Source of the DNA: Acutalibacteraceae bacterium
Lineage (GTDB): Bacteria > Bacillota > Clostridia > Oscillospirales > Acutalibacteraceae
Direction of reading: 5' to 3'
Length of the DNA stretch: 60,571 nt
Assembly (NCBI GenBank): GCA_045540535.1
Contig: JAZQHI010000153.1
Span: 1-60,571, forward strand
Part shown: one piece after another, positions 2,423 to 26,851 of the stretch
How the letters are laid out: every line of letters starts with the position of its first letter
How positions within the stretch are numbered: position 1 is the stretch's first letter
Translations under genes and position numbers: made by a program
The notes under the pieces: model-generated
Seen by the model: the letters and a program-made list of their open reading frames with translations, nothing else
Told to the model about the DNA's origin: nothing
The model's database searches: none

Positions 2423-2424
2423 AA

Positions 2425-8916: not shown

Positions 8917-9696
8917 GTGTTTTTTTTGACTAAGGAAACGGTTCCTGCAGGTGTTGGCTTTAGCACCTTTGGAGTTAAGCATTTGCTGTGGCTATTCGTG
9001 ATAGCGGTTATGTGTGTTGTGTCGGTATTAGTTTACCGCAGATTAACCCCTGAAAAACGCAATACTATGCGGCTTATTTTGGGTTACACAATAGTAGGGT
9101 ATGAAATATTAAAGGATATCGTTGCGGCTATTATCGGTGATTTTGGTGCTTCACATTTGCCGCTTCATTTATGCGGAATAAACGTATTGTTAGTAGGTTT
9201 TGATTTAATTAAACAAACAAAAACGGTACGCAATTTTTTATATTATTTTTCAATACCGGGCGCGTTGTTAGCACTTTTTTTCCCTAATTGGACAGTTCTT
9301 CCGTTATGGAACTTTTTCAATATTCACAGTTTTATAATACACGGTTTGTTGGTTCTCTATCCGCTTATATTGGTTGCAGGCGGTGATTTAACACCGAGTG
9401 TTAAAATGATGCCTAAATGTATACTTTTATTAGTGGCAATGGCAATACCTATATATTTTATAAATCTCATTCTTGATACAAATTTTATGTTTTTAATGGA
9501 GCCCGAAACGGGTAACCCGTTGGGACTTTTTGAAAAATACTTAGGCAGTCATTTGTGGGGATTCCCGATTTTGTTGCCGCCTGTAATGTTTTTAATGTAC
9601 ATACCTATATTTTTAATTTCAAAATGCAAAAAGCGGCGCAGTGAAATTGGCGCTCCGCTTTCAAATGCCGAAACCCTAGAAAAAGTAATAAAATAA
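8917..9696 (+). CDS. Polytopic membrane protein, YwaF/TIGR02206-like
   Basis: Track ORF 8857..9696 trimmed to the in-frame GTG at 8917, downstream of the predicted promoter and preceded by GGGGTGG. About 7 TM helices. The family assignment is from memory only. Confidence 0.5.
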   Translation: MFFLTKETVPAGVGFSTFGVKHLLWLFVIAVMCVVSVLVYRRLTPEKRNTMRLILGYTIVGYEILKDIVAAIIGDFGASHLPLHLCGINVLLVGFDLIKQTKTVRNFLYYFSIPGALLALFFPNWTVLPLWNFFNIHSFIIHGLLVLYPLILVAGGDLTPSVKMMPKCILLLVAMAIPIYFINLILDTNFMFLMEPETGNPLGLFEKYLGSHLWGFPILLPPVMFLMYIPIFLISKCKKRRSEIGAPLSNAETLEKVIK

Positions 9697-10031: not shown

Positions 10032-10064
10032 GTGTGTGTGACTTTGAGTTGCACACACTTTTTT
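10032..10064 (+). terminator. Terminator-like hairpin within the leader (possible attenuator)
   Basis: GTGTGTG...CACACAC stem followed by TTTTTT, ending 5 nt before the GGGAGG RBS of the lipoprotein gene. Confidence 0.4.
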
Positions 10065-10078
10065 GTTGGGAGGAAAAA

Positions 10079-10708
10079 ATGAAAAAAACAACAGTATTGA
10101 TAATTGTGGTATTCATTTTATTGACATTTTGTGGTTGTGGTCATAAGCATCATTTTAGCGAAGCAACCTGCACAACTGATGCGGTTTGCGATTGCGGTGA
10201 GATTGGGAATAAAGCCTTTGACCATTATTTTGAACAGGGTGTTTGCAGATATTGTTCGTATGAGGATCCAACTTTTTTTAATCCGGAAAAATACGGTTTT
10301 ATAACCAACTATGGTATGACAAAATGGATAGAGATAACCTCATACTCTGTTGATGGCGAAAAAGCAACATACAAAGAAAATGGGTATAAACATAAAATAT
10401 ATGAATTCACAAATAACATATTTTACGATTATTCTCGTTACGAAGAATTATCTATGACTAAAGATTATAATATTAAAGAAACTTCAAACTATACAATTAT
10501 AAATAATGATTGTATTAATATGAACGGTGATACTTACACTATTACTGAAAGGGTTAAATTAAAAAACAAAAACCTCATAATAAAAGTTTTTGTAGATGAT
10601 TCAGAAAGATGGTTTATTTTAGAAGAACAAGTTGATTGGAGTAAATCGCCGATTGAAGAAAATACAGATAACATTTCTTGGTCATCTTTCATATATTATT
10701 TTAAATAA
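10079..10708 (+). CDS. Putative lipoprotein, Cys-rich N-terminal region
   Basis: Track ORF trimmed to the ATG at 10079 (GGGAGG RBS). MKKTTVLIIVVFILLTFCGCG is a lipobox-type signal peptide. No recognisable domain. Confidence 0.6.
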   Translation: MKKTTVLIIVVFILLTFCGCGHKHHFSEATCTTDAVCDCGEIGNKAFDHYFEQGVCRYCSYEDPTFFNPEKYGFITNYGMTKWIEITSYSVDGEKATYKENGYKHKIYEFTNNIFYDYSRYEELSMTKDYNIKETSNYTIINNDCINMNGDTYTITERVKLKNKNLIIKVFVDDSERWFILEEQVDWSKSPIEENTDNISWSSFIYYFK

Positions 10709-10836: not shown

Positions 10837-10907
10837 CTTACTTATTAAGTGCTTCGTTGACTGCAACTGCGCAAGCAACAGTCATACCAACCATGGGGTT
10901 GTTACCA
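10837..10907. repeat. attL-side copy of the 71-bp direct repeat (displaced gene 3' end)
   Basis: Matches 25849-25919 with 5 mismatches. On the minus strand it still encodes GNNPMVGMTVACAVAVNEALNK-stop. Confidence 0.85.
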
Positions 10908-11912: not shown

Positions 11913-13184
11913 TTATTTTTTTCGCTGTTGAATTTTTGGAATACCAGATGATATTCTTGCTATTGTTCCAAGTGATAATCCTGTTCGTTCTGCAACCTCT
12001 TTATGCTTATAACCAGATTTTATCAATTTTCGTGCCATATCTTTTTTCATTTCTCTTTCTTGTTTTCGCACTTGTGCCTGTAAATCCCGTGTGATGTTTG
12101 GTCTACTCATTTCATATTTGCCTGTGTTAGCAAGTTCTTCTTCCGTAATGCCTAATTTTTCAAAAAAGGTATTATTTTTAATTTGGTAAACTTTTTCTTG
12201 CTTAAATATATAATCAATGTTTTTTAATGGTTCAGAAAAAGAGTTGTTTATTTTCCTGCATATCTTTTTTGCGGTCACAAATGGATAGATTTGTCTCGCA
12301 GAATTGAATAAAAGAAATAAAATTGTATCTCGTTTGCCCGTACAATCCGCATCATCGTTTACAATTTGCTCTATGATTTTAATTCTCTTATAATGCAAAG
12401 CAGAATAAGCACCAGTTTTCTTTTCTGTTAAGACATCGTTGTTTAGTTCTTGCTCTTTATATCTTTTTTTGATAATTTTCTTTCTTTTCAGATATGCCTT
12501 AACTGGTTCGCTCTCTTGCTCCAACTGTTTAACGAGGTCAACCAGATTGAGTGATTTATCGTGTAGAATTTCGGTCACGGTCATTGTTTTTGCCTTGGTG
12601 TTGTATGTATCAAACATTCTAAACAAACCAATGGCATTTTTACTCGCATTTGCATCAATTTCAAGATGCCTTTCAAGACTGGGATATTCTTTTAAAAATT
12701 CTTTTATAATAATAGCAAAATATTCAACTGCTCTCTGATAGAGAAACAATAATTGTGATGATGCACTTTCAAGATGCCAATATATTTGAACACCCCTTCC
12801 AGTAAAATGAAATGCCGATGGACAAGGAATTTCACCACAGGTAACAAGGTCTCTATGAAATCGCCAACAGAATTCATCGATAAGCAATTCCTTTTCGTGC
12901 ATTGGTAATTTTGAAGAGTGAGCATCGATATCGATGCAAACATTATTCAAACTGAAAAGATTATCCTTTGTTCTGCCATCCTTGGTGTTATATCGCCTTA
13001 TGGTGTTTATCATTATATAATAATCCTGAGATTTGTTGATTTTAAGATTTTCTGCTTTTTCTTTTATATTCTTAAAATCAGAATAACCAAGGCATACCAT
13101 TTTCTTGTCTTTTGTTAATGTGGCAAATTGCACCCATCCTTCGTATTTGCTATCTGGTGGGAATAAAATATCATATATATTCAT
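11913..13184 (-). CDS. Replication initiator / primase-polymerase-like protein with C-terminal HTH
   Basis: 423 aa. NVCIDIDAHS followed by FTGRGVQIYWHL resembles AEP/Prim-Pol motifs I and II. The C-terminal KEVAERTGLSLGTIARI is a helix-turn-helix. It lies next to a palindrome-rich, AT-rich region. Confidence 0.5.
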   Translation of the reverse strand: MNIYDILFPPDSKYEGWVQFATLTKDKKMVCLGYSDFKNIKEKAENLKINKSQDYYIMINTIRRYNTKDGRTKDNLFSLNNVCIDIDAHSSKLPMHEKELLIDEFCWRFHRDLVTCGEIPCPSAFHFTGRGVQIYWHLESASSQLLFLYQRAVEYFAIIIKEFLKEYPSLERHLEIDANASKNAIGLFRMFDTYNTKAKTMTVTEILHDKSLNLVDLVKQLEQESEPVKAYLKRKKIIKKRYKEQELNNDVLTEKKTGAYSALHYKRIKIIEQIVNDDADCTGKRDTILFLLFNSARQIYPFVTAKKICRKINNSFSEPLKNIDYIFKQEKVYQIKNNTFFEKLGITEEELANTGKYEMSRPNITRDLQAQVRKQEREMKKDMARKLIKSGYKHKEVAERTGLSLGTIARISSGIPKIQQRKK

Positions 13185-13963: not shown

Positions 13964-14146
13964 TCATATCAAAATTTCAAAATCATCACAGATAAAACCA
14001 GTTTCTTGCCTGTTTTTCTTTTTTCTCTTTCGTTTGCGATTTTTCTGCATATCTTTTTTAGTAATTACAATAGGTCTGGATTCAACAGTAGAATTATCTG
14101 CGGTAACATCCTTGATAAAACCTTCAATTTTCTGTTTTTTTACCAT
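13964..14146 (-). CDS. Possible small basic protein (60 aa), overlaps the RHH gene end
   Basis: The ATG at 14146 overlaps the upstream stop by 23 nt, with GGGAG 11 nt upstream. KNRKRKRKKKNRQ basic tract. A hairpin follows at its stop. Weak evidence. Confidence 0.3.
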   Translation of the reverse strand: MVKKQKIEGFIKDVTADNSTVESRPIVITKKDMQKNRKRKRKKKNRQETGFICDDFEILI

Positions 14147-14405
14147 TTTTAAGTCGCTCCCATCTATTAATATTTGCTTTGCAGTTACTTGTTTGTTTCA
14201 GTTCCTTTGAAATTTCATCCAGTTGTTTTTGCAGTTTATCATCTTCTAACGATTTATTAAGCAAAAAAGGATATTTCTCAAAAACCGCAGATAGAAACAA
14301 ATCACCGATAGTCATATCGTTTAAGGCGGCAGTTGCCTTTAATTTTGCTTTCATTGTGCTACTAACAATGAACTTAACAGGAACTAAATGAGTAGATTTT
14401 TCCAT
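14124..14405 (-). CDS. Ribbon-helix-helix (CopG/Arc/MetJ-like) DNA-binding protein
   Basis: 93 aa. VKFIVSSTMKAKLKATAALNDMTIGDLFLSAVFEKY fits a beta-alpha-alpha RHH pattern. GGAG RBS. Confidence 0.55.
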   Translation of the reverse strand: MEKSTHLVPVKFIVSSTMKAKLKATAALNDMTIGDLFLSAVFEKYPFLLNKSLEDDKLQKQLDEISKELKQTSNCKANINRWERLKNGKKTEN

Positions 14406-14627
14406 AATTTAGAACTCCTTTCTATCTTTATGAAATAAGTATGACATTTTGTTCCTATGTTCAAAAGAAACTATTAGTACAAGGTAAAACATTTTGCAAA
14501 AAAAGATATGAGTAAAAATCTATAATAATTGTTTTCGGCACTTTATTCTTAAAATTTGCTCACGAACCAAAGTTTGTTGTATTTTCATTTAATTATATGC
14601 ATAAAAAATGACACCAAACGAATGGTG

Positions 14628-14969
14628 TCATTTTTTGTTGCTGTTATATAAATGGTCTATAAGATTTTCAACCATTGTATAATCGCTGTCGCTTAGAATT
14701 GATAGTTTCTTAAATATTCCTTCTAATTGCTTATATTCCTTTTTGCCTGTCAAGATGTAATCCGTAGATATTTTCAGTGAATTACACAAATTAACCAAAT
14801 TTTGCGGTCTGATTGCTTTCTTTCCTAACTCAATGCAGGAAATGGATTGCAAACTCAGATTGATACTTTCTGCCACCTGTTCTTGTGTAAGGTTCAGTTC
14901 CTTTCGCCGTTTGGAAATTCGCTCACCCATTTCCATCAAAAACTTTGCATCTTCGTACATTTCCTTCAC
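14628..14969 (-). CDS. XRE-family helix-turn-helix transcriptional regulator
   Basis: 113 aa. RRKELNLTQEQVAESINLSLQSISCIELGKK is a classic HTH_3 motif. It is divergent from the sigma-factor gene. Confidence 0.85.
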   Translation of the reverse strand: MKEMYEDAKFLMEMGERISKRRKELNLTQEQVAESINLSLQSISCIELGKKAIRPQNLVNLCNSLKISTDYILTGKKEYKQLEGIFKKLSILSDSDYTMVENLIDHLYNSNKK

Positions 14970-14981
14970 CTCGTTTCCTAT

Positions 14982-14994
14982 TACAATTATTGTA
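14982..14994. promoter_or_regulatory. Perfect 13-bp palindrome TACAAT-T-ATTGTA (candidate XRE operator)
   Basis: Lies 13 nt upstream of the XRE start codon, in the divergent intergenic region. Confidence 0.35.
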
Positions 14995-15037
14995 CTAAAA
15001 ACAGGGTGAAATTATAATCAATTATAGTTGCTCAATC

Positions 15038-15066
15038 TTGACTATTTACAACCATAGTATTATAAT
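15038..15066 (+). promoter_or_regulatory. Consensus sigma-A promoter of the cargo operon
   Basis: TTGACT-17 nt-TATAAT, about 60 nt upstream of the ATG at 15129. Confidence 0.6.
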
Positions 15067-15128
15067 ATAATGAGGTATAGTGTATTTTAAACTATTACTA
15101 TCACAATTTAAACTGTGAGGTGAAATAT

Positions 15129-16472
15129 ATGGAAAAAGGTAAATTAACTCCGATTGTAATTAAAGCAAAAAGCGGAGACAAAACGGCACTAAATACCCTC
15201 TTCACCGAAAATTATAATAGTGTGTATTTTTTCGCTCTTAAAACCGTTAAGGATGAAACACTGGCGGCTGATATCACTCAGGAGACATTTGTAACGATTT
15301 TTCAAAATTTAGATACTTTGAACGACCCTGTTGCTTACCTCGCTTGGTCAAGACAAATTACTTATAGACACTGTTTGCAATATCTTAAAAAGCAGAACAG
15401 AGAAACAACGGTTGATGAAAACGAAGATGGCTCTACTATCTTTGATACAATTCAAGAAGAAAGAACGGATTTTATTCCTGATGAAAATCTTGATAAAGAA
15501 GATTTCAAAAAAACAATTCTAAATATTGTTGACAGTCTTCCCGAAGAACAACGAACCGCTGTTATTTTATATTATTATGATGAATTGTCTGTCAGGCAGA
15601 TTGCTGAAATTCAGGGTGTAACAGAAGGAACGGTTAAGAGCAGACTTAACTATGCAAGAAAAACAATCAAATCAGCAGTAGAAAACTATGAAAAGAAAAA
15701 CAATGTCAAGTTACACAGTGTTGGTGTTCTTCCTATGCTTTTGTGGTTGTTTGGAGCGGATGCAAAGGCTTGTTCAATGCCTATGCAGACAGTACAAACC
15801 GTTGCATCAGGTGTTTCTGCTTCCACTGGCACAACAATATCTGTATCAAAATTGGTGCACATCAGTTCAAAATTGCTTGGTGCTCTATGGCAAAAAATTG
15901 TTGCAGGATTGGTTGCGGTTGCAATTGTTACTGGTGGCACGGTTGCGGTTGTAAAAATTGTTAACAAACCAGATGCACAAGTTCCGCAAGATAAAGGACA
16001 GTTAGAAACATTCCAAAAACCACCCGTAAAGGAAAATGTGGAAAGTGAAACACCCATAATCGTAACAGGTTGGCGAGGTTTTGGAGAAGCGACCAACAAA
16101 CCTTATGTATCCCAGAAAAATGAATTTATTTTGACAACAGAGCAAATGGATGAAACTTACCTTAAAGGCGAACTGACAATTTCTGTTCTTGAAGGTTCTT
16201 CATACCAAAAGTTGTTTGAAATTGATATTGAAGGTACTGGTGTAAAAGAAGATACTCAAACAATGTATACCTGTTCAATTTCTTATGATGAAGAATTGAA
16301 AGATACGATAGAAAAGTATTTTATAGATGTTCCAAATCATAACGAGTTAACTTTAAGGTATCATTTTAAAACCGAAAGTTTTGGTTTATATTTTGGCGAA
16401 TATAATGTTGCAGAAGATGCTAATATGGCTTGTTTTAATGCTCTTTTGAGAAAAAGTGATATTGTAAAATAA
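15129..16472 (+). CDS. ECF-type sigma-70 family factor fused to a TM helix and a ~170-aa extracytoplasmic domain
   Basis: Region 2 (DITQETFVTIFQNL...AWSRQITYRHC) and region 4 (LPEEQRTAVILYYYDELSVRQIAEIQGVTEGTVKSRLNYARK). A hydrophobic segment IVAGLVAVAIVTGGTVAVVKIV follows, then a beta-rich C-terminal domain. Start moved to ATG 15129 (GAGGTG RBS). Confidence 0.8.
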   Translation: MEKGKLTPIVIKAKSGDKTALNTLFTENYNSVYFFALKTVKDETLAADITQETFVTIFQNLDTLNDPVAYLAWSRQITYRHCLQYLKKQNRETTVDENEDGSTIFDTIQEERTDFIPDENLDKEDFKKTILNIVDSLPEEQRTAVILYYYDELSVRQIAEIQGVTEGTVKSRLNYARKTIKSAVENYEKKNNVKLHSVGVLPMLLWLFGADAKACSMPMQTVQTVASGVSASTGTTISVSKLVHISSKLLGALWQKIVAGLVAVAIVTGGTVAVVKIVNKPDAQVPQDKGQLETFQKPPVKENVESETPIIVTGWRGFGEATNKPYVSQKNEFILTTEQMDETYLKGELTISVLEGSSYQKLFEIDIEGTGVKEDTQTMYTCSISYDEELKDTIEKYFIDVPNHNELTLRYHFKTESFGLYFGEYNVAEDANMACFNALLRKSDIVK

Positions 16473-16699
16473 AAATTTTTAAAAATTTTTCCAAAAAAAT
16501 AAAACCAAACAGGTTTCTCGTTCCTCCTATTAATGTAAGGAGGATGAAAAAGTGAGAGAACATAACAATTTATACTATATTTTTTTATGGGATTTTGAAA
16601 AAAATAACCTCTCATTAAAAATGGCAAAACAAATTTGGCAAACAATTAAAAATCGTTTATTTTAAAAATTTATCTAATTAAAACTTGGAGGAAAAAATT

Positions 16700-17506
16700 A
16701 TGGGTTTATTTGAAAAAAAGGAATGTGTTAATTGCGGTAAAATGTGCGGTGTGTTTGGAAGGCAAAAAACCGAAGACAAGAAAATTTTATGCAATGATTG
16801 TGCTAACAAAGTCGGAAACGAATTGTCTGCTTGGCAATATACATACGACCAGTATCCTGCACTTGTTGAAAGATGCAATGAAAATGAAAAAAGATTGCAG
16901 GAATTTAATATTGATAAAGTGTATTATGACAGAATTGTTATTGATGAAACAAATAACTGGATTGCTATTCTTGACGATACTGTTTTCACCGTTAAGAAAA
17001 AACATTTACTTACACAAAAACCTCACATTTATGATGCAAAAGATTTAAAGTTCTTCCTGCAAAAGTTTGATATTAAAAAACAAGAAACTACACTTTTAGG
17101 AACAACGATTTATATTGATTTTCATACTACTATGGTATTTGAAGATGAGTTCGTTCCGTGTCCGCTAAATAGTGTTGTTGAAGAAAACCGTGAGGTAGAA
17201 GTAAAGGGTGTCTTCAATAAAAAGGTTGAAGGTTTTTACAAACAAGGTGATTTAGAACTCTTCAAATTTGCAAATGACATATTGAAGGAAAAAGGTTTAG
17301 AAAGACCAGTTGAAATGCAAAAAGGCGATACTATTGAAAGTCTTGATAAATATGCACCTTGGTTTAAAGTGTTGTTTGAACTGGAAAAGAAAAAAATTAT
17401 TGATGATGACCAAGTGGAAAATATCTTAGATGGTATTACAGAAAATATGGGTATCTTCGGCGGTAGCAAGATGTCCTCACAAATCAGAAAAAGATTTGGT
17501 GTTTAA
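16700..17506 (+). CDS. DUF4428-like zinc-ribbon protein
   Basis: MGLFEKKECVNCGKMCGVFGRQKTEDKKILCNDCANK has an N-terminal CxxC...CxxC ribbon typical of the DUF4428 family as I remember it. GGAGG RBS before ATG 16700. Confidence 0.6.
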   Translation: MGLFEKKECVNCGKMCGVFGRQKTEDKKILCNDCANKVGNELSAWQYTYDQYPALVERCNENEKRLQEFNIDKVYYDRIVIDETNNWIAILDDTVFTVKKKHLLTQKPHIYDAKDLKFFLQKFDIKKQETTLLGTTIYIDFHTTMVFEDEFVPCPLNSVVEENREVEVKGVFNKKVEGFYKQGDLELFKFANDILKEKGLERPVEMQKGDTIESLDKYAPWFKVLFELEKKKIIDDDQVENILDGITENMGIFGGSKMSSQIRKRFGV

Positions 17507-17522
17507 TTAAGAAGGGGTTGCG

Positions 17523-18716
17523 GTGACAATTATGAGCAAACAAGAAATAGATACAAATGAAATTGCGGGGAAGAAAAAACCGACACTAAATTTAGGCGAA
17601 ATTAACTTTTACGGATTGTGGCATACAGTTAAAACCTTTTGCACTTTCTTCGCTTTTGTAAGTGCATTTATTTGGTTTTTTCCTCAAACTCTTCCAATAG
17701 ATGAAATTTTTATGTTGATACTGCTTGGTTTAGGTGCTGTATGTGCACTTGTGTCTTGCATTGTTGATGTCTTTAAAATCACTCATTTTGTAGCAGCAAC
17801 AATAACCAAAGTGTTGACAGCGATATCTGTGTTCACATTAATTCCGTTTCTTCCTATTTTTGTTGCAATTATAACATATACGGGTACATTTGCATTTGCT
17901 TTTGTATTCTGTATAATGTTCCCTTATGTGATTACGGTAATTACATATATAGTTAGACTGATAATCGCAAAAAATGAAGGTATCTTTATTGAAAACAAGA
18001 AGAAGGAAATCATTACAGCAGTAGCAGGTTTTTTAACTGCGGTTTCGGTTCTTGTGCTTTGTTTAATTATTCGTAGCACAACGGTTACTGTTACAAACTT
18101 GACAATGGATGACCTTAACCAACAGCAAGTATATAGCGAATATATTGCTGATTTTCCTGAGCGAACTGTTGATGGTATTGATATTACAAATCCTACCAGT
18201 AGCAAATACAATGCCGATACTCTTAGTCACGATGATGTATATGACTTTGAAACAACTGTTGGCGGTGTGACTTATAAAAACAAAGTGACAATTCATTACG
18301 AATATAGAGATGGTAAATGGAAACTTGATGAAATCAATGAGCAAAGAGATTTAGACAATGCTACCATTGATATTTCTGGCACTTTTGAAGGTGTTGGCAA
18401 ATTTGAAGGTGCTCTTGCCATGAGAGATTTTCAATACACATTCAAGATTGAAAAATTAACCAAAGACGGTGGCACAGCATCGCTAGTCATCTACGATGAT
18501 AGAACAAATGAAAATCTTGTTGATACAAAATCCAATATTACGGTTGTTGAAACGATAACCGAGAACAACGATATTGTTTTAAATCTTAATATTGAATTTA
18601 ACCCTGCACTTGAAGGTGGCATTGATAATGTTGAAGGAAAATATTCAGTAGCAACTGGAACATTAACCGTACACGGTTTCTCGTTTAATGATGATATTAT
18701 TCTCTCAATTAAATAA
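17523..18716 (+). CDS. Polytopic membrane protein with a ~200-aa extracytoplasmic C-terminal domain
   Basis: 397 aa. About 5 TM helices in residues 30-190, then a beta-rich soluble domain. No family recognised. The start could instead be ATG 17532. Confidence 0.55.
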   Translation: MTIMSKQEIDTNEIAGKKKPTLNLGEINFYGLWHTVKTFCTFFAFVSAFIWFFPQTLPIDEIFMLILLGLGAVCALVSCIVDVFKITHFVAATITKVLTAISVFTLIPFLPIFVAIITYTGTFAFAFVFCIMFPYVITVITYIVRLIIAKNEGIFIENKKKEIITAVAGFLTAVSVLVLCLIIRSTTVTVTNLTMDDLNQQQVYSEYIADFPERTVDGIDITNPTSSKYNADTLSHDDVYDFETTVGGVTYKNKVTIHYEYRDGKWKLDEINEQRDLDNATIDISGTFEGVGKFEGALAMRDFQYTFKIEKLTKDGGTASLVIYDDRTNENLVDTKSNITVVETITENNDIVLNLNIEFNPALEGGIDNVEGKYSVATGTLTVHGFSFNDDIILSIK

Positions 18717-18753
18717 TTTGAGTAAATAATAAATATAGAAAGGTTTAATAATT

Positions 18754-19869
18754 ATGAAAAGATTACTTGCTTTATTACTTGCGACATTGATGGTCTTCTC
18801 GCTCGTTTCTTGTGGCAACAGCGATACCAAGGGTGGTTCTAACACCGAAAAGAGTGTTGAAGAAATTGTTAAGAATGATGATAGTACCATTGGAAAATTA
18901 GTTAGAACTTGGTGCGAAACAATTTCCATTACAGACCAAGCAAAAGGTTATGCTAATCGTGCAGAAAATAACTTTTATAAATTTAATTACACCAGTGAAG
19001 AAAAAGCAGATGGTGAAGATATTAAACGAGTTTACGAAAGCGAAAACAAAAGATATAAATTTACTGTTAGTTATGACAAGGCAGAAAATACACTGACAAT
19101 TTTTGACGAAAGACAATCTACAATAACTGGTCGTATACAAGGTTGTAATGAAGTTGAGATGGGTTATAATGCCAGCACAACAGTTGTTAAGTTTAATGCA
19201 GAAAACATCTTGGTTAGTGCAACAAAAACGGATGCAGAAAAACCTGAATATGATTTTTCATACGACCAAATGATTTACACTTTTGATGAAAAAGGCAATC
19301 TGATTGAGACTGTTCCTAAAAACACCAATACTAATAGTATATTTGGAGATAGTTACAAATATAAATACGAATATGATGAGAATAATAACCTGATTAAATT
19401 AATTCACGATGATGACTATACTGAATATACATACGATGAAAACGGCAATATAACTGTATATTCTTATACAACCGATGAATACGGCGAAACAATGGAAAAA
19501 AGTCCGTTCAAATGTGAAAAACTTGAAAACGGAAACATAAAAATAACTCAGTTTGATGTTGAAAATAAAGACCGTGTTATCCGTTGGGAAATCTATGACC
19601 ACTATGGTAATTCAATTGAAAGAACTGATTATAAAGAAGATGGAACAGTAGATTTTTCTTCAAAATGCAAATACAACGAAGAAGGCGATTGCATTGAGGA
19701 AACAAGAACAGATGAATATGGCGAAAGTGTTACAGGATACGAATACAATGAATACGGAAATACGATTAAAACAATCTACTACAACGATGAAGGCAAGGCT
19801 TATTCAATTACCGAATACAAATACGACGAAAATGGGAAGAAGATAGATGAGGAAACCTATCGTCCTTAG
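18754..19869 (+). CDS. Lipoprotein with YD/RHS-like repeats
   Basis: MKRLLALLLATLMVFSLVSCG lipobox. Repeats include YTFDEKGNL, YEYDENNNL, YTYDENGNI, YDHYGNS, YNEEGDC, YEYNEYGNT and YKYDENGKK. Confidence 0.7.
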   Translation: MKRLLALLLATLMVFSLVSCGNSDTKGGSNTEKSVEEIVKNDDSTIGKLVRTWCETISITDQAKGYANRAENNFYKFNYTSEEKADGEDIKRVYESENKRYKFTVSYDKAENTLTIFDERQSTITGRIQGCNEVEMGYNASTTVVKFNAENILVSATKTDAEKPEYDFSYDQMIYTFDEKGNLIETVPKNTNTNSIFGDSYKYKYEYDENNNLIKLIHDDDYTEYTYDENGNITVYSYTTDEYGETMEKSPFKCEKLENGNIKITQFDVENKDRVIRWEIYDHYGNSIERTDYKEDGTVDFSSKCKYNEEGDCIEETRTDEYGESVTGYEYNEYGNTIKTIYYNDEGKAYSITEYKYDENGKKIDEETYRP

Positions 19870-19963: not shown

Positions 19964-20000
19964 TAGATACTAAAAGTATCACTTAGATGATACCAAAAAG

Positions 20001-20040
20001 GATATGAGTGAAAACAAAAAATCTACTCATATCTTTTTTT
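20001..20040. terminator. Bidirectional terminator built on a GATATGAG stem
   Basis: AAAAAG-GATATGAGT...ACTCATATC-TTTTTTT. Confidence 0.6.
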
Positions 20041-20225: not shown

Positions 20226-20278
20226 ACACTAAGACCATATCAAAAAAGATATGAGAAAAAATGAAAGGAGTTATTTAA

Positions 20279-20524
20279 ATGCAAGACCCTCACTTTTTCC
20301 CTTTAACAGAGCAACAAGTTTTTGAAAACCAAAAATCACTATCCGAGAAATTAAATTTTGCCAAAACGATTTGTGACCTTGCATCCGAAGAAGGTTGGTT
20401 TGCTGATATGTTTGGAGTTAGTCCACGAGATGCAAGTCTTTTGTCATATGAAATATCCGTTATACAAGAAAAGATAATTGGCAATCTCATAATTTTTGAT
20501 GAAAGGGAAGATAAGGTGATTTAA
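20279..20524 (+). CDS. Small acidic protein translationally coupled to the relaxase (possible relaxosome accessory)
   Basis: 81 aa, AAAGGAG RBS. Its TAA overlaps the relaxase ATG (TAATG). Confidence 0.5.
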   Translation: MQDPHFFPLTEQQVFENQKSLSEKLNFAKTICDLASEEGWFADMFGVSPRDASLLSYEISVIQEKIIGNLIIFDEREDKVI

Positions 20525-21978
20525 TGGAAGAAATAAATGCTACTTTATCATTTCATATGGATAGTAGACATAATGATAAACACGATGCAAGAAATTTGTA
20601 TGTGCCATATGTAAATCCAGAATTGAGCATAAACAATTATTATCCTGATTTTAATATGTCCAGAGAGCAGGCATTTGAATTTTTATTTAGCGATGCTGTC
20701 CGTGAGTATAATCAAAAACAGACCAGACCTGAACGAAGGATTAAAAATTACTTGGAAAAACTCTTGGCATCAGAAGAGCGACAAAATCAACTGATTAGAG
20801 AAAAACGAGCAGAAGGATGCAGTTATAAAGAATTAGCGAAATTCAGGAAGAAAAAACACTGCTCCGTTCAAATGATTATAGGAATTGGCAATATACAGGA
20901 AAATCCAGAGTTCAAAGCAAATGGTTCAAAGGCGGAGGTTGTCAATAAAATCATAAAAGAATATATTGATGGATTTCAGGAACGAAATCCAAATGCCTTC
21001 CTGTACCACAGTGCACGGCATAACGATGAGCAGGGAGTTATTCATGGACACCTGTCAATAATCTGGTATGCGGATGGGTTCACCAAAGGTATGAGCAGAC
21101 AAGTATCGCAGAAAAAAGCACTGGAACAGATGGGATTTGTGTCTGACACGAAAAAAGGTGCGGATGGTAAATTGCATCTCGCCATTGAGAAGTGGCAGCA
21201 AAGAGAACGGTCTGTTCTCCGTAGCATCTGCAAATCCTACGGCATCAACATTGTATCTGGTAGAGAAAGTCGCGAACACCTTGACCGTGAGCATTATATT
21301 ATAAAAAAGCAAAAAGAAGAGTGTGCTACACTATTAAAAGATGCAAACGAGAAAGCGGGTGCTGTTTTAGCAGCACAAGAAAAGGTTGATGCACAACTTT
21401 TTGACATCAAGAATTTTTTACAAAATACCGAAAACGGTGCTGTTTATTCCATATATGCAGAGAACCGTGACAGCAAAGAAAAAATTTCCGCATACGAAAA
21501 AAAGAATAGGGAGACATATTTTCTATTGGCAAGATTATGGGAAGAATATAAAAAAGAAAATGCACGGTACTGGGAAAAGTACCGTGCAGATAAAAATGAA
21601 CTCTTTGCATCTCTCCAAGCAATTCGGAACGGTGTCAAGTACAATAAGAAGCAACTGGATGATTGCTTATATTCGCTTTTAGATACCAGTCAATCGCTTT
21701 TAAGCAAACTAATATCCATTATAGAACTGTTTGCTTTGCTCGTTGAGAACACTGTTTTTAAGCGAGAATTAGCGAAGATAGAACAAGCACACAGAGAACT
21801 AAAAGAAAATGCCCGTGTGGTGTTACAGGCATCCAAAGAAACCAGTATCGCTCTAAAATCAAAAGATATGGATAATGTAGAACTTGCACTACAAAACTGG
21901 AACACGACTATTCAAAAAACTGATAATGACTTGCGATTACAATTTCAAACGGTTGATGAACAATATAAAGGGATATAA
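20524..21978 (+). CDS. HUH-type mobilization relaxase (MOBQ/MOBV-like) with coiled-coil C-terminus
   Basis: 484 aa. Three-histidine motif HNDEQGVIHGH, N-terminal Tyr candidates (NLYVPY), and a long K/E-rich helical C-terminal half. Confidence 0.7.
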   Translation: MEEINATLSFHMDSRHNDKHDARNLYVPYVNPELSINNYYPDFNMSREQAFEFLFSDAVREYNQKQTRPERRIKNYLEKLLASEERQNQLIREKRAEGCSYKELAKFRKKKHCSVQMIIGIGNIQENPEFKANGSKAEVVNKIIKEYIDGFQERNPNAFLYHSARHNDEQGVIHGHLSIIWYADGFTKGMSRQVSQKKALEQMGFVSDTKKGADGKLHLAIEKWQQRERSVLRSICKSYGINIVSGRESREHLDREHYIIKKQKEECATLLKDANEKAGAVLAAQEKVDAQLFDIKNFLQNTENGAVYSIYAENRDSKEKISAYEKKNRETYFLLARLWEEYKKENARYWEKYRADKNELFASLQAIRNGVKYNKKQLDDCLYSLLDTSQSLLSKLISIIELFALLVENTVFKRELAKIEQAHRELKENARVVLQASKETSIALKSKDMDNVELALQNWNTTIQKTDNDLRLQFQTVDEQYKGI

Positions 21979-21980
21979 TG

Positions 21981-22020
21981 AAAAAAGATATGAGAGATTT
22001 TGTTTCTCTCATATCTTTTT
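21981..22020. terminator. Bidirectional terminator built on a GATATGAG stem
   Basis: AAAAAAGATATGAGAG-ATTTTGTTT-CTCTCATATCTTTTT, between convergent genes. Confidence 0.65.
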
Positions 22021-22929
22021 GTGTTTTTTCTTAAATTCTTCAATATCAAAATTTATTGTTACATAGGTGCGGGGTTTCGGAACTTTCTCTGCTAACAACT
22101 GCCAACGGCGGTATACATTGTAACTGCTAATCATATTCAGCATTTCCATCGCTCTTTCAACCCTTGCTCGTTCGGAAGGAACGGTGTCTATCATAGTATC
22201 CGCCAAGTTGCTGATTTCATAATATTCACTGGGCACTCCTCCGCATCTCTTTGGTAAATCAAAAATCTCAAATGGTTGGTTAGAAAGGTCATCACTGTAA
22301 CTTAATGTGTTTTCATAATCATTCGCCATCAACCAAAATGTGATTTTACTGCTAATACCACAATAATCCTTTAATAATTCTAATGTGGTCTTTGGACTAA
22401 TTTGATAAGTTTCATATGCAAAATAAATTTCTTTAAATGCATCGTTAATATTTAACCTCTGTTCAGTTCTAAGTCCCCCTGAATTTTTTTGTGGTATCGC
22501 ATTGCTAACATAAACAGAAAAATCTTCAATGAGTTCAGATGCTGATTTTGAAGACTTAACAAAGAAATCTTCTCCTGCTTTCTGGTTTCCAAATCTTAGT
22601 GTGGAAAACGGAGAGATTTTTGCGATTGCTCCATCAAAATTAAAAATCAAAAGGTCAATGCCTTTTTGCAGGATAGCAGTATAGAACATCGTTGCCTTTT
22701 GACTGTTACCCATCAGCAAGGCATCCACAGAATACATATCTATTCTATCGCCTGTATCCAGTTTTTCAATCAGTTCCATTAATTTTGGTCTGTTGTCTGT
22801 ATCAGAGCGAATAATATCAATGACAATTTCATCAACACCAATAGAATACAATTCTTGATATGCTACTGTTTTCTTAATATCAATCGTTGTATTTCGTATG
22901 CTTACACCGTATCCATAAGCTTTTTTCAT
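22009..22929 (-). CDS. Resolvase-N-domain-like protein lacking the catalytic Ser/Arg signature
   Basis: Track ORF trimmed to the ATG at 22929 (AAGGGG RBS, and a divergent promoter lies upstream). KAYGYGVSIRNTT aligns to the GYxRVSTxxQ position without R or S. RPKLMELIEKLDTGDRIDMYSVDALL resembles the resolvase core. Confidence 0.45.
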   Translation of the reverse strand: MKKAYGYGVSIRNTTIDIKKTVAYQELYSIGVDEIVIDIIRSDTDNRPKLMELIEKLDTGDRIDMYSVDALLMGNSQKATMFYTAILQKGIDLLIFNFDGAIAKISPFSTLRFGNQKAGEDFFVKSSKSASELIEDFSVYVSNAIPQKNSGGLRTEQRLNINDAFKEIYFAYETYQISPKTTLELLKDYCGISSKITFWLMANDYENTLSYSDDLSNQPFEIFDLPKRCGGVPSEYYEISNLADTMIDTVPSERARVERAMEMLNMISSYNVYRRWQLLAEKVPKPRTYVTINFDIEEFKKKHKKI

Positions 22930-22968
22930 ATAATTACCCCTTTTTAAAAAATAAACCTTTCCAAAGGC

Positions 22969-22997
22969 TTGACAATGAAACTGTTGGTGTGTATAAT
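22969..22997 (+). promoter_or_regulatory. Consensus sigma-A promoter reading toward xis-int
   Basis: TTGACA-17 nt-TATAAT, about 210 nt upstream of xis. Confidence 0.55.
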
Positions 22998-23041
22998 AAT
23001 AGTGGTATAGGTGGAATACAAAAACCACCTATAAAAAATCT

Positions 23042-23474: not shown

Positions 23475-24980
23475 ATGAGTAAAAGTATTGAAACAGTAAG
23501 AACCGTTCATATCTTCAAATCTAAATACAAAAGAAAGGACGGTAAGGAAACTTGGTCGTATCGTTTTGAAATGCCATATCGCCGTGCAGATGGCAAAAGA
23601 GATTTTGCCACAAAGAGTGGTTTTGCAACAAAAACGGCGGCGAAAACGGCAGGACAACAAGAGTTCAACCGTATCTATAATGGTGTTGTACCACAAATTA
23701 CCAAGTCTGATGACCGTGTTGCAGAACTTCGTTTCAAGGACTACATCACAAACTATTGGTATCCGTTTAAGCAAAAATTGGTAAAAGACACCACTATGGA
23801 GGGGTATCAAAAGAAATTCAACGGTATTTTATTTCCTAGATTTGGTAACACGGCAATAAAGGACATCACAACCGAGGTTTTAGAAGAGTTCTTAAACACG
23901 GACATTTACCTTAATTCCGAGTTATCAAACCACACACTTCTTAACCTACGGGCATTGTTAAAGCAAGTTTTTAATTTCGCCGTTAAAAACGGACATATTG
24001 ATACAAATCCAATGCTCACAGCAACTCCCCACAACCCTCGCATACCACCTAATGTGGTCAAACGAGGACAGTGCCGAACCGCTATTGATAAGGGAACACT
24101 TGACAAAATCTACGATTTATACCCCAAAGGCACTCTTGAACATCTTGCCCTTAAAATTATGCAACTGACAGGTATGAGACACGGAGAGTGTTTTGCTCTT
24201 GATTGGAGAGATATTTGTTTTGAAAATCATTGTATTTATCTTGTTAGACAGATACAGAGAAAATCATCAAAATTCACTCCGACTGCTTGGGAAAAAGAAC
24301 TACTTGCAAAACACCCCGAACTTCGTAATTTCAAGTGGTATATCAGCAACCCTAAATACGAAAGTCGCCGTGCTATTCCTATGTCAGCAGAGATTGAGCA
24401 ATTGCTTAAAGATGAATTGGAGTGTCAACAAGCAAATCGTAAAAAATATGGTGCAAAGTATAAGAGGTATTTCTATACTCGTAGAACTGCACCCCGTTAT
24501 TACAACGACTTTCATACCTTTAATACTTGCACAAGTCAAATTAAGGGGGAAATCGTTACAGAGTTTGAGAATGGTATTCTTAACGAACACGGTATTGGTT
24601 ACGAGTTCAACCCTGTTTTTCGCCGTGTGAATGGTGCTTATTATACATCTGGAAACACTCAATATATTTCTCGTAAAATTCACGGTTACGAAGGTAACGA
24701 ACTTATTTCAAGCACCTTTAATATTCATTCTTTACGACACACTTATGCATCTTCTATGAGGTCAATGGGTTTTGAAAGTTACATTGTGCAAAGTTTAATG
24801 GGACACAAAAATCCATCAACGACAACACAGGTGTATATGCATCTTGAAGAGAATGTGTTTACACAGGTGGCACACACGGTCAACACTATGGGCAGTGTGG
24901 ATGCCTTAATCAACAATCTCTCCAACGAACAGTTGGAAGAGTTGAAAATAAAATTATTAAATAAAGGAGAATTGCAGTAA
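23475..24980 (+). CDS. int: Tyrosine-type site-specific integrase with N-terminal arm-binding domain
   Basis: 501 aa. The N-terminus KRKDGKETWSYRFEM...GFATKTAAK is Tn916-type arm-binding-like. Catalytic TGMRHGE, HSLRHTYAS and GHKNPSTTTQVYMH motifs are present. Confidence 0.9.
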   Translation: MSKSIETVRTVHIFKSKYKRKDGKETWSYRFEMPYRRADGKRDFATKSGFATKTAAKTAGQQEFNRIYNGVVPQITKSDDRVAELRFKDYITNYWYPFKQKLVKDTTMEGYQKKFNGILFPRFGNTAIKDITTEVLEEFLNTDIYLNSELSNHTLLNLRALLKQVFNFAVKNGHIDTNPMLTATPHNPRIPPNVVKRGQCRTAIDKGTLDKIYDLYPKGTLEHLALKIMQLTGMRHGECFALDWRDICFENHCIYLVRQIQRKSSKFTPTAWEKELLAKHPELRNFKWYISNPKYESRRAIPMSAEIEQLLKDELECQQANRKKYGAKYKRYFYTRRTAPRYYNDFHTFNTCTSQIKGEIVTEFENGILNEHGIGYEFNPVFRRVNGAYYTSGNTQYISRKIHGYEGNELISSTFNIHSLRHTYASSMRSMGFESYIVQSLMGHKNPSTTTQVYMHLEENVFTQVAHTVNTMGSVDALINNLSNEQLEELKIKLLNKGELQ

Positions 24981-25848: not shown

Positions 25849-25919
25849 CTTACTTATTAAGTGCTTCGTTTACTGCAACTGCACATGCAACTGTCATACC
25901 AACCATCGGGTTGTTACCA
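25849..25919. repeat. attR-side copy of the 71-bp direct repeat (functional gene 3' end)
   Basis: See attL. It forms the last 23 codons of the intact gene. Confidence 0.85.
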
Positions 25920-26851
25920 GCACCGATAAGTCCCATCATCTCAACGTGAGCAGGAACGGAAGAAGAACCTGCAAACTGAGCGTCTGAGTGCATACGGCCC
26001 ATAGTATCGGTCATACCGTAAGAAGCGGGGCCGGCAGCCATATTATCGGGGTGGAGAGTACGTCCTGTACCGCCGCCTGATGCTACTGAGAAGTACTTCT
26101 TGCCCTGTTCGATACATTCTTTCTTGTAAGTACCTGCAACGGGGTGTTGGAAGCGGGTGGGGTTGGTTGAGTTACCTGTGATAGAAACGTCAACACCCTC
26201 TTTATGCATAATAGCAACGCCTTCGCGAACATCGTCCGCACCGTAGCAACGAACCTTTGCACGCTCGCCGTCGGAATAAGCGATTTCTTCAACTACAGCG
26301 AGTTCGCCTGTGAAGTAATCGAACTTAGTTTGAACATAGGTAAAGCCGTTAATTCTTGAAATGATTTTAGCGGCATCTTTACCAAGACCGTTAAGAACAA
26401 CGCGGAGAGGTTCTTTACGAGCCTTGTTAGCGCTCTTAGCAAGACCGATAGCGCCTTCAGCAGCAGCGAATGATTCGTGACCTGCGAGGAAAGCGAAACA
26501 TTTGGTTTCTTCGCGAAGAAGCATAGCGCCGAGGTTACCGTGACCAAGACCAACCTTACGGTCGTCAGCAACAGAACCGGGGATGCAAAAAGATTGAAGA
26601 CCTACACCGATTTTTTCAGCGGCTTCAGCAGCGCTCTTAACTTCATCCTTAATAGCGATAGCGCAACCTACAACATAAGCCCAAGCAGCGTTTTCGAAGC
26701 AGATAGGCTGAATATCCTTAACGATATTGTAAGCGTCAACACCTGCTTTATCGCAAATCTCTTTGGCTTCTTCGATAGAAGAAATGCCGTGCTTACTGAG
26801 TTCTGCGTTTATTTGATTTATTCTTCTGTCATAACTTTCAAATAATGCCAT
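25850..26851 (-). CDS. GGGtGRT-family protein (function unknown)
   Basis: 333 aa containing the family-naming SGGGTGRT motif. Visibly GC-richer codon usage than its neighbours. Confidence 0.85.
   Translation of the reverse strand: MALFESYDRRINQINAELSKHGISSIEEAKEICDKAGVDAYNIVKDIQPICFENAAWAYVVGCAIAIKDEVKSAAEAAEKIGVGLQSFCIPGSVADDRKVGLGHGNLGAMLLREETKCFAFLAGHESFAAAEGAIGLAKSANKARKEPLRVVLNGLGKDAAKIISRINGFTYVQTKFDYFTGELAVVEEIAYSDGERAKVRCYGADDVREGVAIMHKEGVDVSITGNSTNPTRFQHPVAGTYKKECIEQGKKYFSVASGGGTGRTLHPDNMAAGPASYGMTDTMGRMHSDAQFAGSSSVPAHVEMMGLIGAGNNPMVGMTVACAVAVNEALNK

Follow-up and report, generated by a model that had tools for sequence, protein, structure and literature searches.

The SigI/RsgI systems of cellulolytic clostridia are autoregulated from promoters with an A-tract and a C-rich −35 region. 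Sigma factors of the extracytoplasmic function (ECF) type that bear fused C-terminal transmembrane (TM) or sensor extensions are represented by IutY of Pseudomonas putida and by the groups ECF48, ECF52 and ECF53 with, e.g., SCO4117 of Streptomyces coelicolor (PMC8999054). SigY of Bacillus subtilis (ECF31) is regulated by the small proteins YxlC and YxlD, which are encoded directly downstream, and SigY needs YxlD (PMC7826278). Here, we analyzed a sigma factor cassette encoded on contig JAZQHI010000153.1 of an Acutalibacteraceae bacterium (positions 1 to 60,571; this whole stretch of 60,571 nt is called the window). The cassette is an IME-captured, presumably XRE-gated member of a large uncharacterized family of membrane-tethered ECF sigma factors, IME denoting an integrative mobilizable element, and is kin of the ECF sigma factors with fused transmembrane sensors. 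Its most interesting features are a conserved micro-protein and a combined putative promoter and hairpin, neither of which was contained in an earlier interpretation made from the letters of the window alone (in the following, the sequence-only reading).

The Oscillospirales (Acutalibacteraceae, Oscillospiraceae, Faecousia, Ruminococcus) are abundant gut bacteria, mostly uncultured, whose environmental sensing is barely understood. Searching for the sigma core together with a conserved segment behind region 4 yielded 508 loci among the GTDB species representatives. From these, 80 loci were fetched, almost all from metagenome-assembled genomes (MAGs) of gut Oscillospirales; one of them, L011 from a MAG of the Acutalibacteraceae, shares 97% identity with the window. 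Related loci are denoted L001 and following.

Membrane-tethered sigma factor

The sigma gene is located at 15129-16472 on the plus strand and most likely starts with the ATG at 15129 behind the ribosome-binding site GAGGTG, 15120 being an alternative start. Its product matches Sigma70_r2, Sigma70_r4 and Sigma70_r4_2 as well as TIGR02937 (102.7 bits, cut-off 42.9), while no r3 match and thus no σ3 domain was detected. With σ2 and σ4 domains only, the protein belongs to the ECF type (group 4) of the σ70 family. None of the NCBIfam models gave an equivalog-level match, every named model remaining below its cut-off; the best named match of the sigma domain was SigY with 101.8 bits, far under the 194-bit equivalog cut-off.

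The σ2/σ4 part (amino acids ~8-190) is followed by a conserved hydrophobic segment, NVKLHxxGVLPxLLWLF (~192-208), by a Ser/Thr-rich linker, by one strong TM helix (~255-280) and by ~165 further amino acids, of which ~310-447 form a β-rich ectodomain. Sigma domain, TM helix and extracytoplasmic domain are therefore present in one chain, and the predicted topology would place the ectodomain on the extracellular side. The region between σ4 and the TM helix comprises ~60 amino acids with a single Cys; the linker is of low complexity and predicted to be disordered, and the TM helix is Gly-rich and holds a helix-destabilizing TGGT stretch. Neither an anti-sigma domain (ASD, ZAS, zf-HC2) between σ4 and the TM helix in Pfam or NCBIfam nor an RsgI_N domain was found.

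The AlphaFold2 (AF2) model of the protein was informative for σ2/σ4 only, with pLDDT values of 65-85 for this part, below 50 for linker and TM helix (residues 204-309) and 40-80 for the ectodomain. The top Foldseek matches were AlgU, σE, SigW and SigL, and region 4 superposes on region 4 of σE bound to −35 GGAAC DNA with a TM-score of 0.87 and 34-36% identity. Two leads concerning the ectodomain were discarded, namely a β-barrel match to GID4 (E 0.03), which was judged unreliable, and a motif in common with the last domain of the membrane protein encoded further downstream (hhalign probability 0.14%).

Relatives of the sigma factor have 384-1043 amino acids, and the long forms bear ectodomains with BspA-type leucine-rich repeats (LRR; LRR_5) or DUF6273. 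The ectodomain thus varies between family members; for linker, TM helix and ectodomain of the window's protein taken together, 41 clusters were found. Public annotation holds no names for these clusters, and literature searches revealed no description of the sigma family.

Promoter-like motif and hairpin

At 16499-16528 on the plus strand, 27 nt after the sigma stop codon and preceded by an A/T-rich tract, lies the bipartite promoter-like motif ATAAAACC-N16-CCTCCT. For its analysis, a strict pattern was searched over 91 loci (2.8 Mb counting both strands) and compared with shuffled sequences. This gave 67 unique instances versus a mean of 0.7 in the shuffles, corresponding to a ~100-fold enrichment. 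The motif has the same orientation as the sigma gene in 63 of the 65 instances from loci with a called sigma gene, and its spacer is rigid, with 16 nt in 54 and 15-17 nt in all of the 67 instances. Also, an A/T-rich tract upstream of the ATAAAACC box recurs across the instances. In 28 of 73 non-redundant loci, the motif follows the sigma stop codon within 100 nt, and another position, upstream of the sigma operon, was found in 16 of the 73, none of these 16 being of the XRE type; it precedes neighboring genes for lipoproteins, membrane proteins and ribbon proteins as well. The copy 27 nt past the sigma gene is the only instance in the 60-kb window. We infer that the motif is an ECF-type promoter with an AAC-containing −35 region and a −10 region at the canonical distance, the latter doubling as an arm directed against a Shine-Dalgarno (SD) sequence. 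The superposition of sigma region 4 on the GGAAC-bound region 4 of σE fits this assignment.

The C-rich half of the motif is part of a hairpin (16522-16544, plus strand), in which TCCTCCT (16522-16528) pairs with AGGAGGA (16538-16544) across a 9-nt loop and the 3′ arm is the SD sequence of a micro-ORF, i.e., a very small open reading frame (ORF). In the window, this hairpin has a ΔG of −11.7 kcal/mol (z −2.7). A perfectly complementary G-rich partner downstream of the C-rich core is present in 38/67 instances as compared to 1.6% of controls, stems of at least 10 bp occur in 37% versus 0.15%, and the longest stem has 20 bp. Mostly, the G-rich partner includes the SD sequence of the next gene. 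Of the positions flanking the core, outer position 1 and inner position 7 covary to a degree that was attained by 0 of 500 permutations; at outer position 1, 84% of the instances are paired, as compared to 47% in the permutations. These covariation data come from a register-anchored analysis; RNAalifold on a MAFFT alignment, in which the 3′ arms were out of register, gave only 4 pairs. In the 29 of 67 instances without pairing partner the C-rich core is still conserved, which argues for a second, pairing-independent role of the core. No Rfam family matched between 14000 and 20600.

Micro-ORF between the sigma and Zn-ribbon genes

The sequence-only reading had described an operon of four genes separated by short gaps. 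This picture has to be revised, as the gap between the sigma gene and the following Zn-ribbon gene measures 212 nt and holds a conserved fifth gene in addition to the internal promoter-like motif with its hairpin. The fifth gene, the micro-ORF (16552-16665, plus strand), encodes a peptide of 37 amino acids, MREHNNLYYIFLWDFEKNNLSLKMAKQIWQTIKNRLF, and has a GTG start codon with the SD sequence AGGAGG 8 nt upstream. Homologues were present in every related locus that was first examined, and 48 distinct peptides were collected overall, which have the core (K/R)EH-x-NLYYIF-x-x-D...HP-x-P...E-x-IRKN in common. They are encoded 18-180 nt after the sigma stop codon or directly after an intervening lipoprotein gene. 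The nucleotide entropy of 12 core codons in 45 sequences was 0.77, 0.52 and 1.25 at codon positions 1, 2 and 3, respectively, and synonymous exchanges are abundant. Due to the high entropy at the third position and the synonymous exchanges, the micro-ORF can be regarded as a translated gene under purifying selection; conservation as a mere DNA motif was ruled out by this codon-position test. The micro-protein has no match in Pfam and no TM segment.

Zn-ribbon protein, membrane protein and lipoprotein

The Zn-ribbon gene (16700-17506, plus strand) most likely starts with the ATG at 16700 (alternative start 16685) and encodes a cytoplasmic protein of 268 amino acids with a CxxC...CxxC motif (Cys 9, 12, 31 and 34). 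With regard to its earlier designation as a DUF4428-type ribbon, both CxxC pairs are there, and cluster P0007, which is 97% identical, has a precomputed PF14471 match, but the protein's own score against DUF4428 (PF14471) is 24.0 bits and thereby below the gathering score of 27.8. In its AF2 model (pLDDT 80.7, pTM 0.73), the ribbon at the N-terminus is followed by helices, by a domain of β-sheet and, at the C-terminus, by a bundle of helices. This model gave no fold match in the PDB (best E 0.1, TM-score 0.13). Among viral proteins, it had one significant match (E 5.8e-8, TMq 0.43), to a protein of a gut siphovirus with the annotation SHOCT ('Short C-terminal domain'); a search of the Zn-ribbon protein for SHOCT (PF09851) gave no Pfam match at E ≤ 0.1. 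Nine clusters of the protein are known, and the sigma cassette always adjoins. In homologues of the membrane nuclease SNIPE that have no TM helix, DUF4428 or a PH domain is found at the N-terminus (2025 preprint); by analogy, this parallel hints at a membrane-proximal role of the ribbon protein.

The next gene (17523-18716, plus strand) encodes a polytopic membrane protein of 397 amino acids with five hydropathy peaks followed by a tail of ~200 amino acids. A 4-TM domain, which the protein shares with small 4-TM proteins encoded in related cassettes, is followed by another TM helix and an ectodomain of ~200 amino acids; aligning the 4-TM family with the TM domain of the membrane protein gave an hhalign probability of 96.5% (E 1e-9). 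The protein has no family match in Pfam or NCBIfam and no sequence match in the PDB. It is rare: 5.8 billion sequences contained only 6 clusters of it (90% identity), and even a profile search of 1.84 billion proteins gave no more than 15 (50% identity).

The last gene of the cassette (18754-19869, plus strand) encodes a lipoprotein of 371 amino acids with the lipobox LVSC (Cys20) and an RHS_repeat match (30.3 bits). It has five strict YD repeats and about five or more in all. Neither an Rhs core nor a toxin domain was detected, no small (immunity) gene follows within the cassette, and Rhs proteins of the PDB matched over ~40 amino acids only (E 0.04-0.09). In related loci, conservation of the lipoprotein is limited to the signal peptide.

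The five ORFs that the sequence-only reading had assigned to the XRE regulator, the sigma factor and these three proteins were recovered at the same positions and with the domains it had described. Its statement that the products have no assignable function also stands, as the cargo-specific parts, namely sigma ectodomain, ribbon protein, membrane protein and micro-protein, have no PADLOC match, no informative match in Pfam, NCBIfam or the PDB and no public names.

Co-occurrence and distribution of the cassette

For the analysis of the downstream genes, 58 non-redundant loci with at least 3 kb of sequence downstream of the sigma gene were used, and a component was counted when encoded within 5 kb on the same strand. 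A lipoprotein of any kind (33/58 loci) and the micro-ORF (31/58) were most frequent, followed by Zn-ribbon proteins of three sequence types (18/58), small 4-TM proteins (7/58), the membrane protein of the window (5/58) and YD-type lipoproteins (3/58). Genes for small 4-TM proteins adjoin ribbon genes; together with the homology of the 4-TM domains, this suggests that the recurrent accessory unit is composed of a ribbon protein and a 4-TM domain. The co-occurrence of all components, which had been put forward as a check of the four-gene system, was thus found for some of them only: the sigma factor, the micro-ORF, Zn-ribbon proteins and a 4-TM domain were encountered again in diverged loci, whereas the complete membrane protein was found in few loci and the YD lipoprotein is not conserved. 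In sister elements, the latter is replaced by unrelated lipoproteins. At L012 12443-13615, downstream of a sigma factor with 91% identity, a DUF3137 membrane protein and extra lipoproteins take the place of the membrane protein, which points to rapid swapping of the downstream genes.

Locus L001 appeared to have no sigma gene, yet the first ~20 sigma codons (MDKEKLPYLVAKAQGGDNQ...) are present at 9000-9080, past the conserved σA-type promoter and leader. It retains the ribbon protein, the micro-ORF, the membrane protein, the lipoprotein and a 14-bp version of the hairpin. A cassette working without sigma factor was rejected as explanation for this locus, because the 5′ remnant of the sigma gene identifies it as a deletion derivative.

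Most relatives are encoded in loci without mobile-element markers and without XRE gene, where the sigma factor's own motif is located upstream. The cassette is therefore not IME-specific. In many of the marker-free relatives, a sigma factor with LRR ectodomain is followed by a transglutaminase-like (papain-fold) lipoprotein of ~460 amino acids and then by the micro-ORF (e.g., at L026 7443-8825, L042 12342-13733 and L065 13199-14671). This transglutaminase-like lipoprotein is a candidate site-1 protease of the tethered sigma factor. In plasmids and phages, tblastn gave only generic sigma-domain matches with at most 32% identity and none for the Zn-ribbon protein. IMG/VR contained a single relative, in which a terminator directly follows the sigma gene and no cassette is present.

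XRE regulator and mobile element

Divergently to the sigma gene, an XRE-family helix-turn-helix (HTH) regulator is encoded at 14628-14969 on the minus strand (HTH_19/HTH_3, E ~1e-12). Orthologues with 46-48% identity occupy the same position in L001, L002, L005 and L010, and a divergent XRE gene was found in 9 of 69 non-redundant loci, 7 of which have mobile-element markers. The promoter TTGACT-17-TATAAT (15038-15066, plus strand), which had already been recognized as a consensus promoter, is of the σA type with 11 of 12 consensus matches, and promoter and leader are conserved among the XRE-type loci. Two palindromes at 14979-14997 and 15101-15118 flank it and are candidate operators. Because of the divergent layout and its conservation, the XRE protein is presumed to be the repressor of this promoter. 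The combination of XRE gene and σA-type promoter marks the mobile-element-borne subset of the cassettes.

The element carrying the cassette is bounded by two copies of a 71-nt direct repeat (family D1, 93% identical), attL at 10837-10907 and attR at 25849-25919. The copies are 15,012 nt apart and thereby define an element of 15.0 kb. A gene of the GGGtGRT family (PF14057, E 3e-195) at 25850-26851 on the minus strand is the insertion target, and attR constitutes its 3′ end; the element is inserted in the 3′ end of this gene, and the gene end was regenerated by the insertion. A tyrosine integrase is encoded at 23475-24980 (plus strand) with a Phage_integrase match (E 5.5e-19) as well as SAM-like and arm-binding domains. 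Both the integrase and the flanking att direct repeats that an IME should have are thus present. The cargo of 5.2 kb makes up about one third of the 15.0-kb element, as the sequence-only reading had estimated, and its placement as IME cargo divergent from an XRE gene was borne out.

The further backbone includes a candidate relaxase of 484 amino acids (20524-21978, plus strand; phrog_31146, E 6e-19). The window's own protein has no Pfam match; a homologue with 30% identity in L001 has a weak Mob_Pre match. Among the scanned ORFs of the element, no families of type IV secretion systems (T4SS) were found, and 15 kb is too small for a T4SS. On the left side, a backbone protein of 423 amino acids with a C-terminal HTH is encoded at 11913-13184 (minus strand), for which only weak HTH matches were obtained and which is possibly a replication or primase-type protein; homologues with 40-73% identity adjoin the cassette in L001, L002 and L010. 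The cargo is bordered by two small backbone genes, one on the left (14124-14405, minus strand; no family match; 55-69% identical in L005, L006 and L010) and one on the right (20279-20524, plus strand; 41-60% identical in L002, L005 and L010). Both also flank the sigma cassette in L005, L010 and L021, where the elements otherwise differ and have tyrosine or serine recombinases. With the same two flanking genes in otherwise different elements, the cassette seems to sit in a conserved cargo slot of an IME family.

Some additional observations were made on the element. The 21-nt sequence AAAAAAGATATGAGTAAAAAT is present in three copies with 86-95% identity that flank the cargo. A single copy (14499-14519) lies past the XRE gene on its 3′ side, and the other two (19995-20015 and 20242-20262) are situated in the stretch that separates the lipoprotein gene from the backbone gene to its right. 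They could be recombination scars of the cargo slot, binding sites of a regulator or merely similar gene starts. Just outside attL, an ORF of 224 codons (10034-10708, plus strand) has no Pfam, PADLOC or PHROG match; with 35% identity over 52 amino acids (E 7e-4), its N-terminus is weakly similar to the Zn-ribbon proteins of type B that occur in related cassettes. A perfect σ70 consensus promoter (TTGACA-17-TATAAT, 12/12) is located at 22969-22997 (plus strand), ~480 nt upstream of the integrase gene, and falls within the 5′ part of an ORF of 339 codons on the minus strand (22009-23028) with a weak resolvase-like match. In the sister element L001, a separate SigI-like sigma gene and an RsgI_M/PepSY anti-sigma-like gene are located at 1201-3311, so IMEs of this kind can carry more than one sigma-based sensor.

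Proposed mechanism and alternative explanations

Overall, we favor, with slightly better than even confidence, a model in which an XRE-gated sigma cassette captured by an IME makes a tethered sigma factor that is released and then drives its own downstream promoter. By repressing the σA-type promoter 15038-15066, the XRE protein would let the element set the timing of sigma synthesis. From this promoter, the ECF-type sigma factor would be expressed, held by its single TM helix with the ectodomain of ~165 amino acids outside the cell. When the ectodomain receives a signal from the envelope or from outside the cell, the sigma domain could be freed, the likeliest route being regulated intramembrane proteolysis; the analogy with IutY and ECF52 and the Gly-rich TM helix point to such a release. 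The free sigma factor would direct RNA polymerase to ATAAAACC-N16-CCTCCT just behind its own gene, and transcription from there, the start and sigma dependence of which we infer, would cover the genes for the micro-protein, the Zn-ribbon protein, the membrane protein with 4-TM domain and ectodomain, and the YD lipoprotein. In the hairpin, the SD sequence of the micro-ORF is paired with the C-rich half; read-through transcripts from the upstream promoter would hence be masked for translation, and those initiated within the hairpin accessible. The gene of the micro-protein is placed where an anti-sigma gene is usually found, and a role as minimal regulator or partner of the sigma factor is the most likely one. 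The Zn-ribbon protein and the 4-TM domain protein may form the recurrent membrane-proximal pair, and the lipoprotein a swappable surface output. In chromosomal relatives, the motif upstream of the sigma operon would serve autoregulation, and the mobile copies would have put the XRE gene and the σA-type promoter in its place.

Several observations weigh against this model. The strict motif is missing from 28 of the 73 non-redundant loci and from the sole independent viral-contig locus. When, conversely, JGI metagenomes were searched for the motif, the 40 matches obtained included neither one with the extended consensus nor one near a sigma factor of the family; these are chance matches and hence no independent support for the motif. 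With 7 bp (z −2.7), the hairpin of the window is short. The window's cassette does not encode a protease, and the low-confidence part of the AF2 model (linker, TM helix and ectodomain; pLDDT below 50 at 204-309) is silent on autoinhibition or cleavage. Also, a C-rich −10 region is atypical for ECF promoters, which are mostly of the CGT type, and the motif may just as well be a leader element that is transcribed.

Taken further, this last point leads to an unlikely explanation, in which box and hairpin are a leader or intercistronic RNA element within one long operon transcribed from the upstream promoter, and the sigma factor has its targets elsewhere in the genome. The hairpin, possibly bound by the Zn-ribbon protein or the micro-protein, would then control translation or termination by its anti-SD arm. 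Such a role would fit the covariation, because both arms are selected to pair and the 5′ arm must therefore be transcribed in at least some transcripts, and it would fit both the T-run following the 3′ arm in several loci, which resembles an attenuator or terminator, and the −10 region that is unusual for an ECF sigma factor. Against it, the rigid 16-nt distance of the ATAAAACC box and the A/T-rich tract are features of DNA recognition with no evident role in RNA, no conserved pairing involves the box, and the C-rich core persists in the 29 partner-less instances. Moreover, the motif precedes the sigma operon in 16 loci, which is the usual layout of ECF autoregulation, and no Rfam family matched the region. 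We regard it as highly improbable that the sigma factor is active while tethered, transcribing the adjacent promoter at the membrane by means of its flexible linker of ~60 amino acids, with ectodomain and accessory proteins as allosteric modulators. ToxR- and CadC-type regulators act at the membrane, the linker is long, of low complexity and predicted to be disordered, and the absence of a protease gene from the cassette would be expected. Target and regulator are also co-localized, the only motif of the 60-kb window being 27 nt from the end of the sigma gene. A sigma factor has, however, to join the RNA polymerase holoenzyme, and we know of no membrane-tethered one reported to do so; in addition, the transglutaminase-fold lipoprotein beside many relatives is a candidate site-1 protease. 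The characterized ECF sigma factors with fused TM segments, IutY and SCO4117, are activated by proteolysis (PMC8999054).

A role in phage defense, superinfection or entry exclusion, or contact-dependent interaction, as considered in the sequence-only reading, would make the cassette a self-contained accessory system, in which the sigma factor serves for internal regulation only, the effectors being the membrane protein and the YD lipoprotein. Its location in a cargo slot between conserved backbone genes of several elements and the three envelope-exposed products would suit such a system; DUF4428 stands at the N-terminus of some homologues of SNIPE, which is a membrane-associated anti-phage nuclease, and YD repeats are a typical component of Rhs proteins and of contact-dependent ones. 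Against this, the supposed effectors are the least conserved components, the membrane protein occurring in 5/58 loci and the YD hidden Markov model matching in 3/58, and the lipoprotein comes without Rhs core, toxin domain or immunity gene. In PADLOC-DB 2.0, the sigma factor, the ribbon protein, the membrane protein and the lipoprotein match nothing, and the XRE protein matches generic HTH models only. Furthermore, most relatives lack mobile-element markers and are found beside lipoproteins and transglutaminase-like proteins rather than in defense islands, and the sigma family is virtually absent from phage and plasmid collections. We therefore disfavor this explanation and consider it distinctly unlikely, mainly because of the poorly conserved effectors, the missing matches to defense models and the relatives without markers.

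Beyond the favored model of a released sigma factor, the cassettes may, as a tentative and more doubtful proposal, represent a class of ECF sigma modules not described so far, one-component and membrane-tethered, with an obligatory micro-protein, a promoter/anti-SD hairpin and a Zn-ribbon/4-TM pair, which are captured by mobile elements under XRE control. If so, three features not reported for any sigma system would be added. The micro-protein partner of ~35-55 amino acids would be a minimal anti-sigma or co-sigma factor; the −10 half of the cognate promoter would also be the anti-SD arm, so that only sigma-initiated transcripts would be translatable and read-through silenced, giving a built-in insulator; and the Zn-ribbon/4-TM pair would be a modular accessory. 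Mobile elements would use the cassette as a surface-sensing switch that remodels the host envelope. For ECF biology, which also serves orthogonal synthetic circuits, micro-protein and promoter/hairpin may add a new type of minimal regulator and an insulation trick. With 508 loci and LRR ectodomains, the sigma family could be a main route from surface signals to gene expression in Oscillospirales, and mobile elements can take over a sigma cassette by exchanging an autoregulatory promoter for a repressor-gated one.

Comparison with known systems

The pairing of an XRE-type regulator with a sigma-like protein near the regulatory region of a mobile element is, as the sequence-only reading had pointed out, reminiscent of orf9/orf7 of Tn916. 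The product of orf7 is small and soluble and controls transfer genes, whereas the sigma factor described here is tethered and its putative cognate motif precedes envelope cargo instead of mobilization genes; also, its family is mostly not borne by mobile elements. SigY with YxlC and YxlD offers a loose precedent for genes of small proteins downstream of a sigma gene, one of them very small. SigY itself is soluble, and YxlC and YxlD are membrane proteins, unlike the micro-protein, which has no TM segment and for which no similarity to known families was detected.

The biomass-sensing SigI/RsgI pairs are likewise multiple paralogous sigma modules of Clostridia; by variable extracytoplasmic domains they sense cues from outside and drive genes for surface or secreted proteins. 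RsgI_M-domain proteins occur in some of the loci related to the window. The cassettes differ in that sensor and sigma factor are one protein, with a canonical σ4 instead of σI-C and without RsgI_N.

In common with IutY and the ECF52 type, σ2/σ4, TM segment and extracytoplasmic domain are combined in one polypeptide, no separate canonical anti-sigma gene is present, and by analogy the release of the sigma factor by regulated proteolysis would be expected. In place of an anti-sigma or ZAS domain, the protein described here has just the linker of ~60 amino acids with its conserved hydrophobic segment, and its ectodomain is β-rich, with BspA-type LRR or DUF6273 in the relatives. IutY and SCO4117 stem from Proteobacteria and Actinobacteria, whereas the host here belongs to the Firmicutes (Oscillospirales). 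Finally, the sigma factor of the window is accompanied by a micro-protein gene and by the motif with its hairpin, and it is carried by an IME under XRE control.

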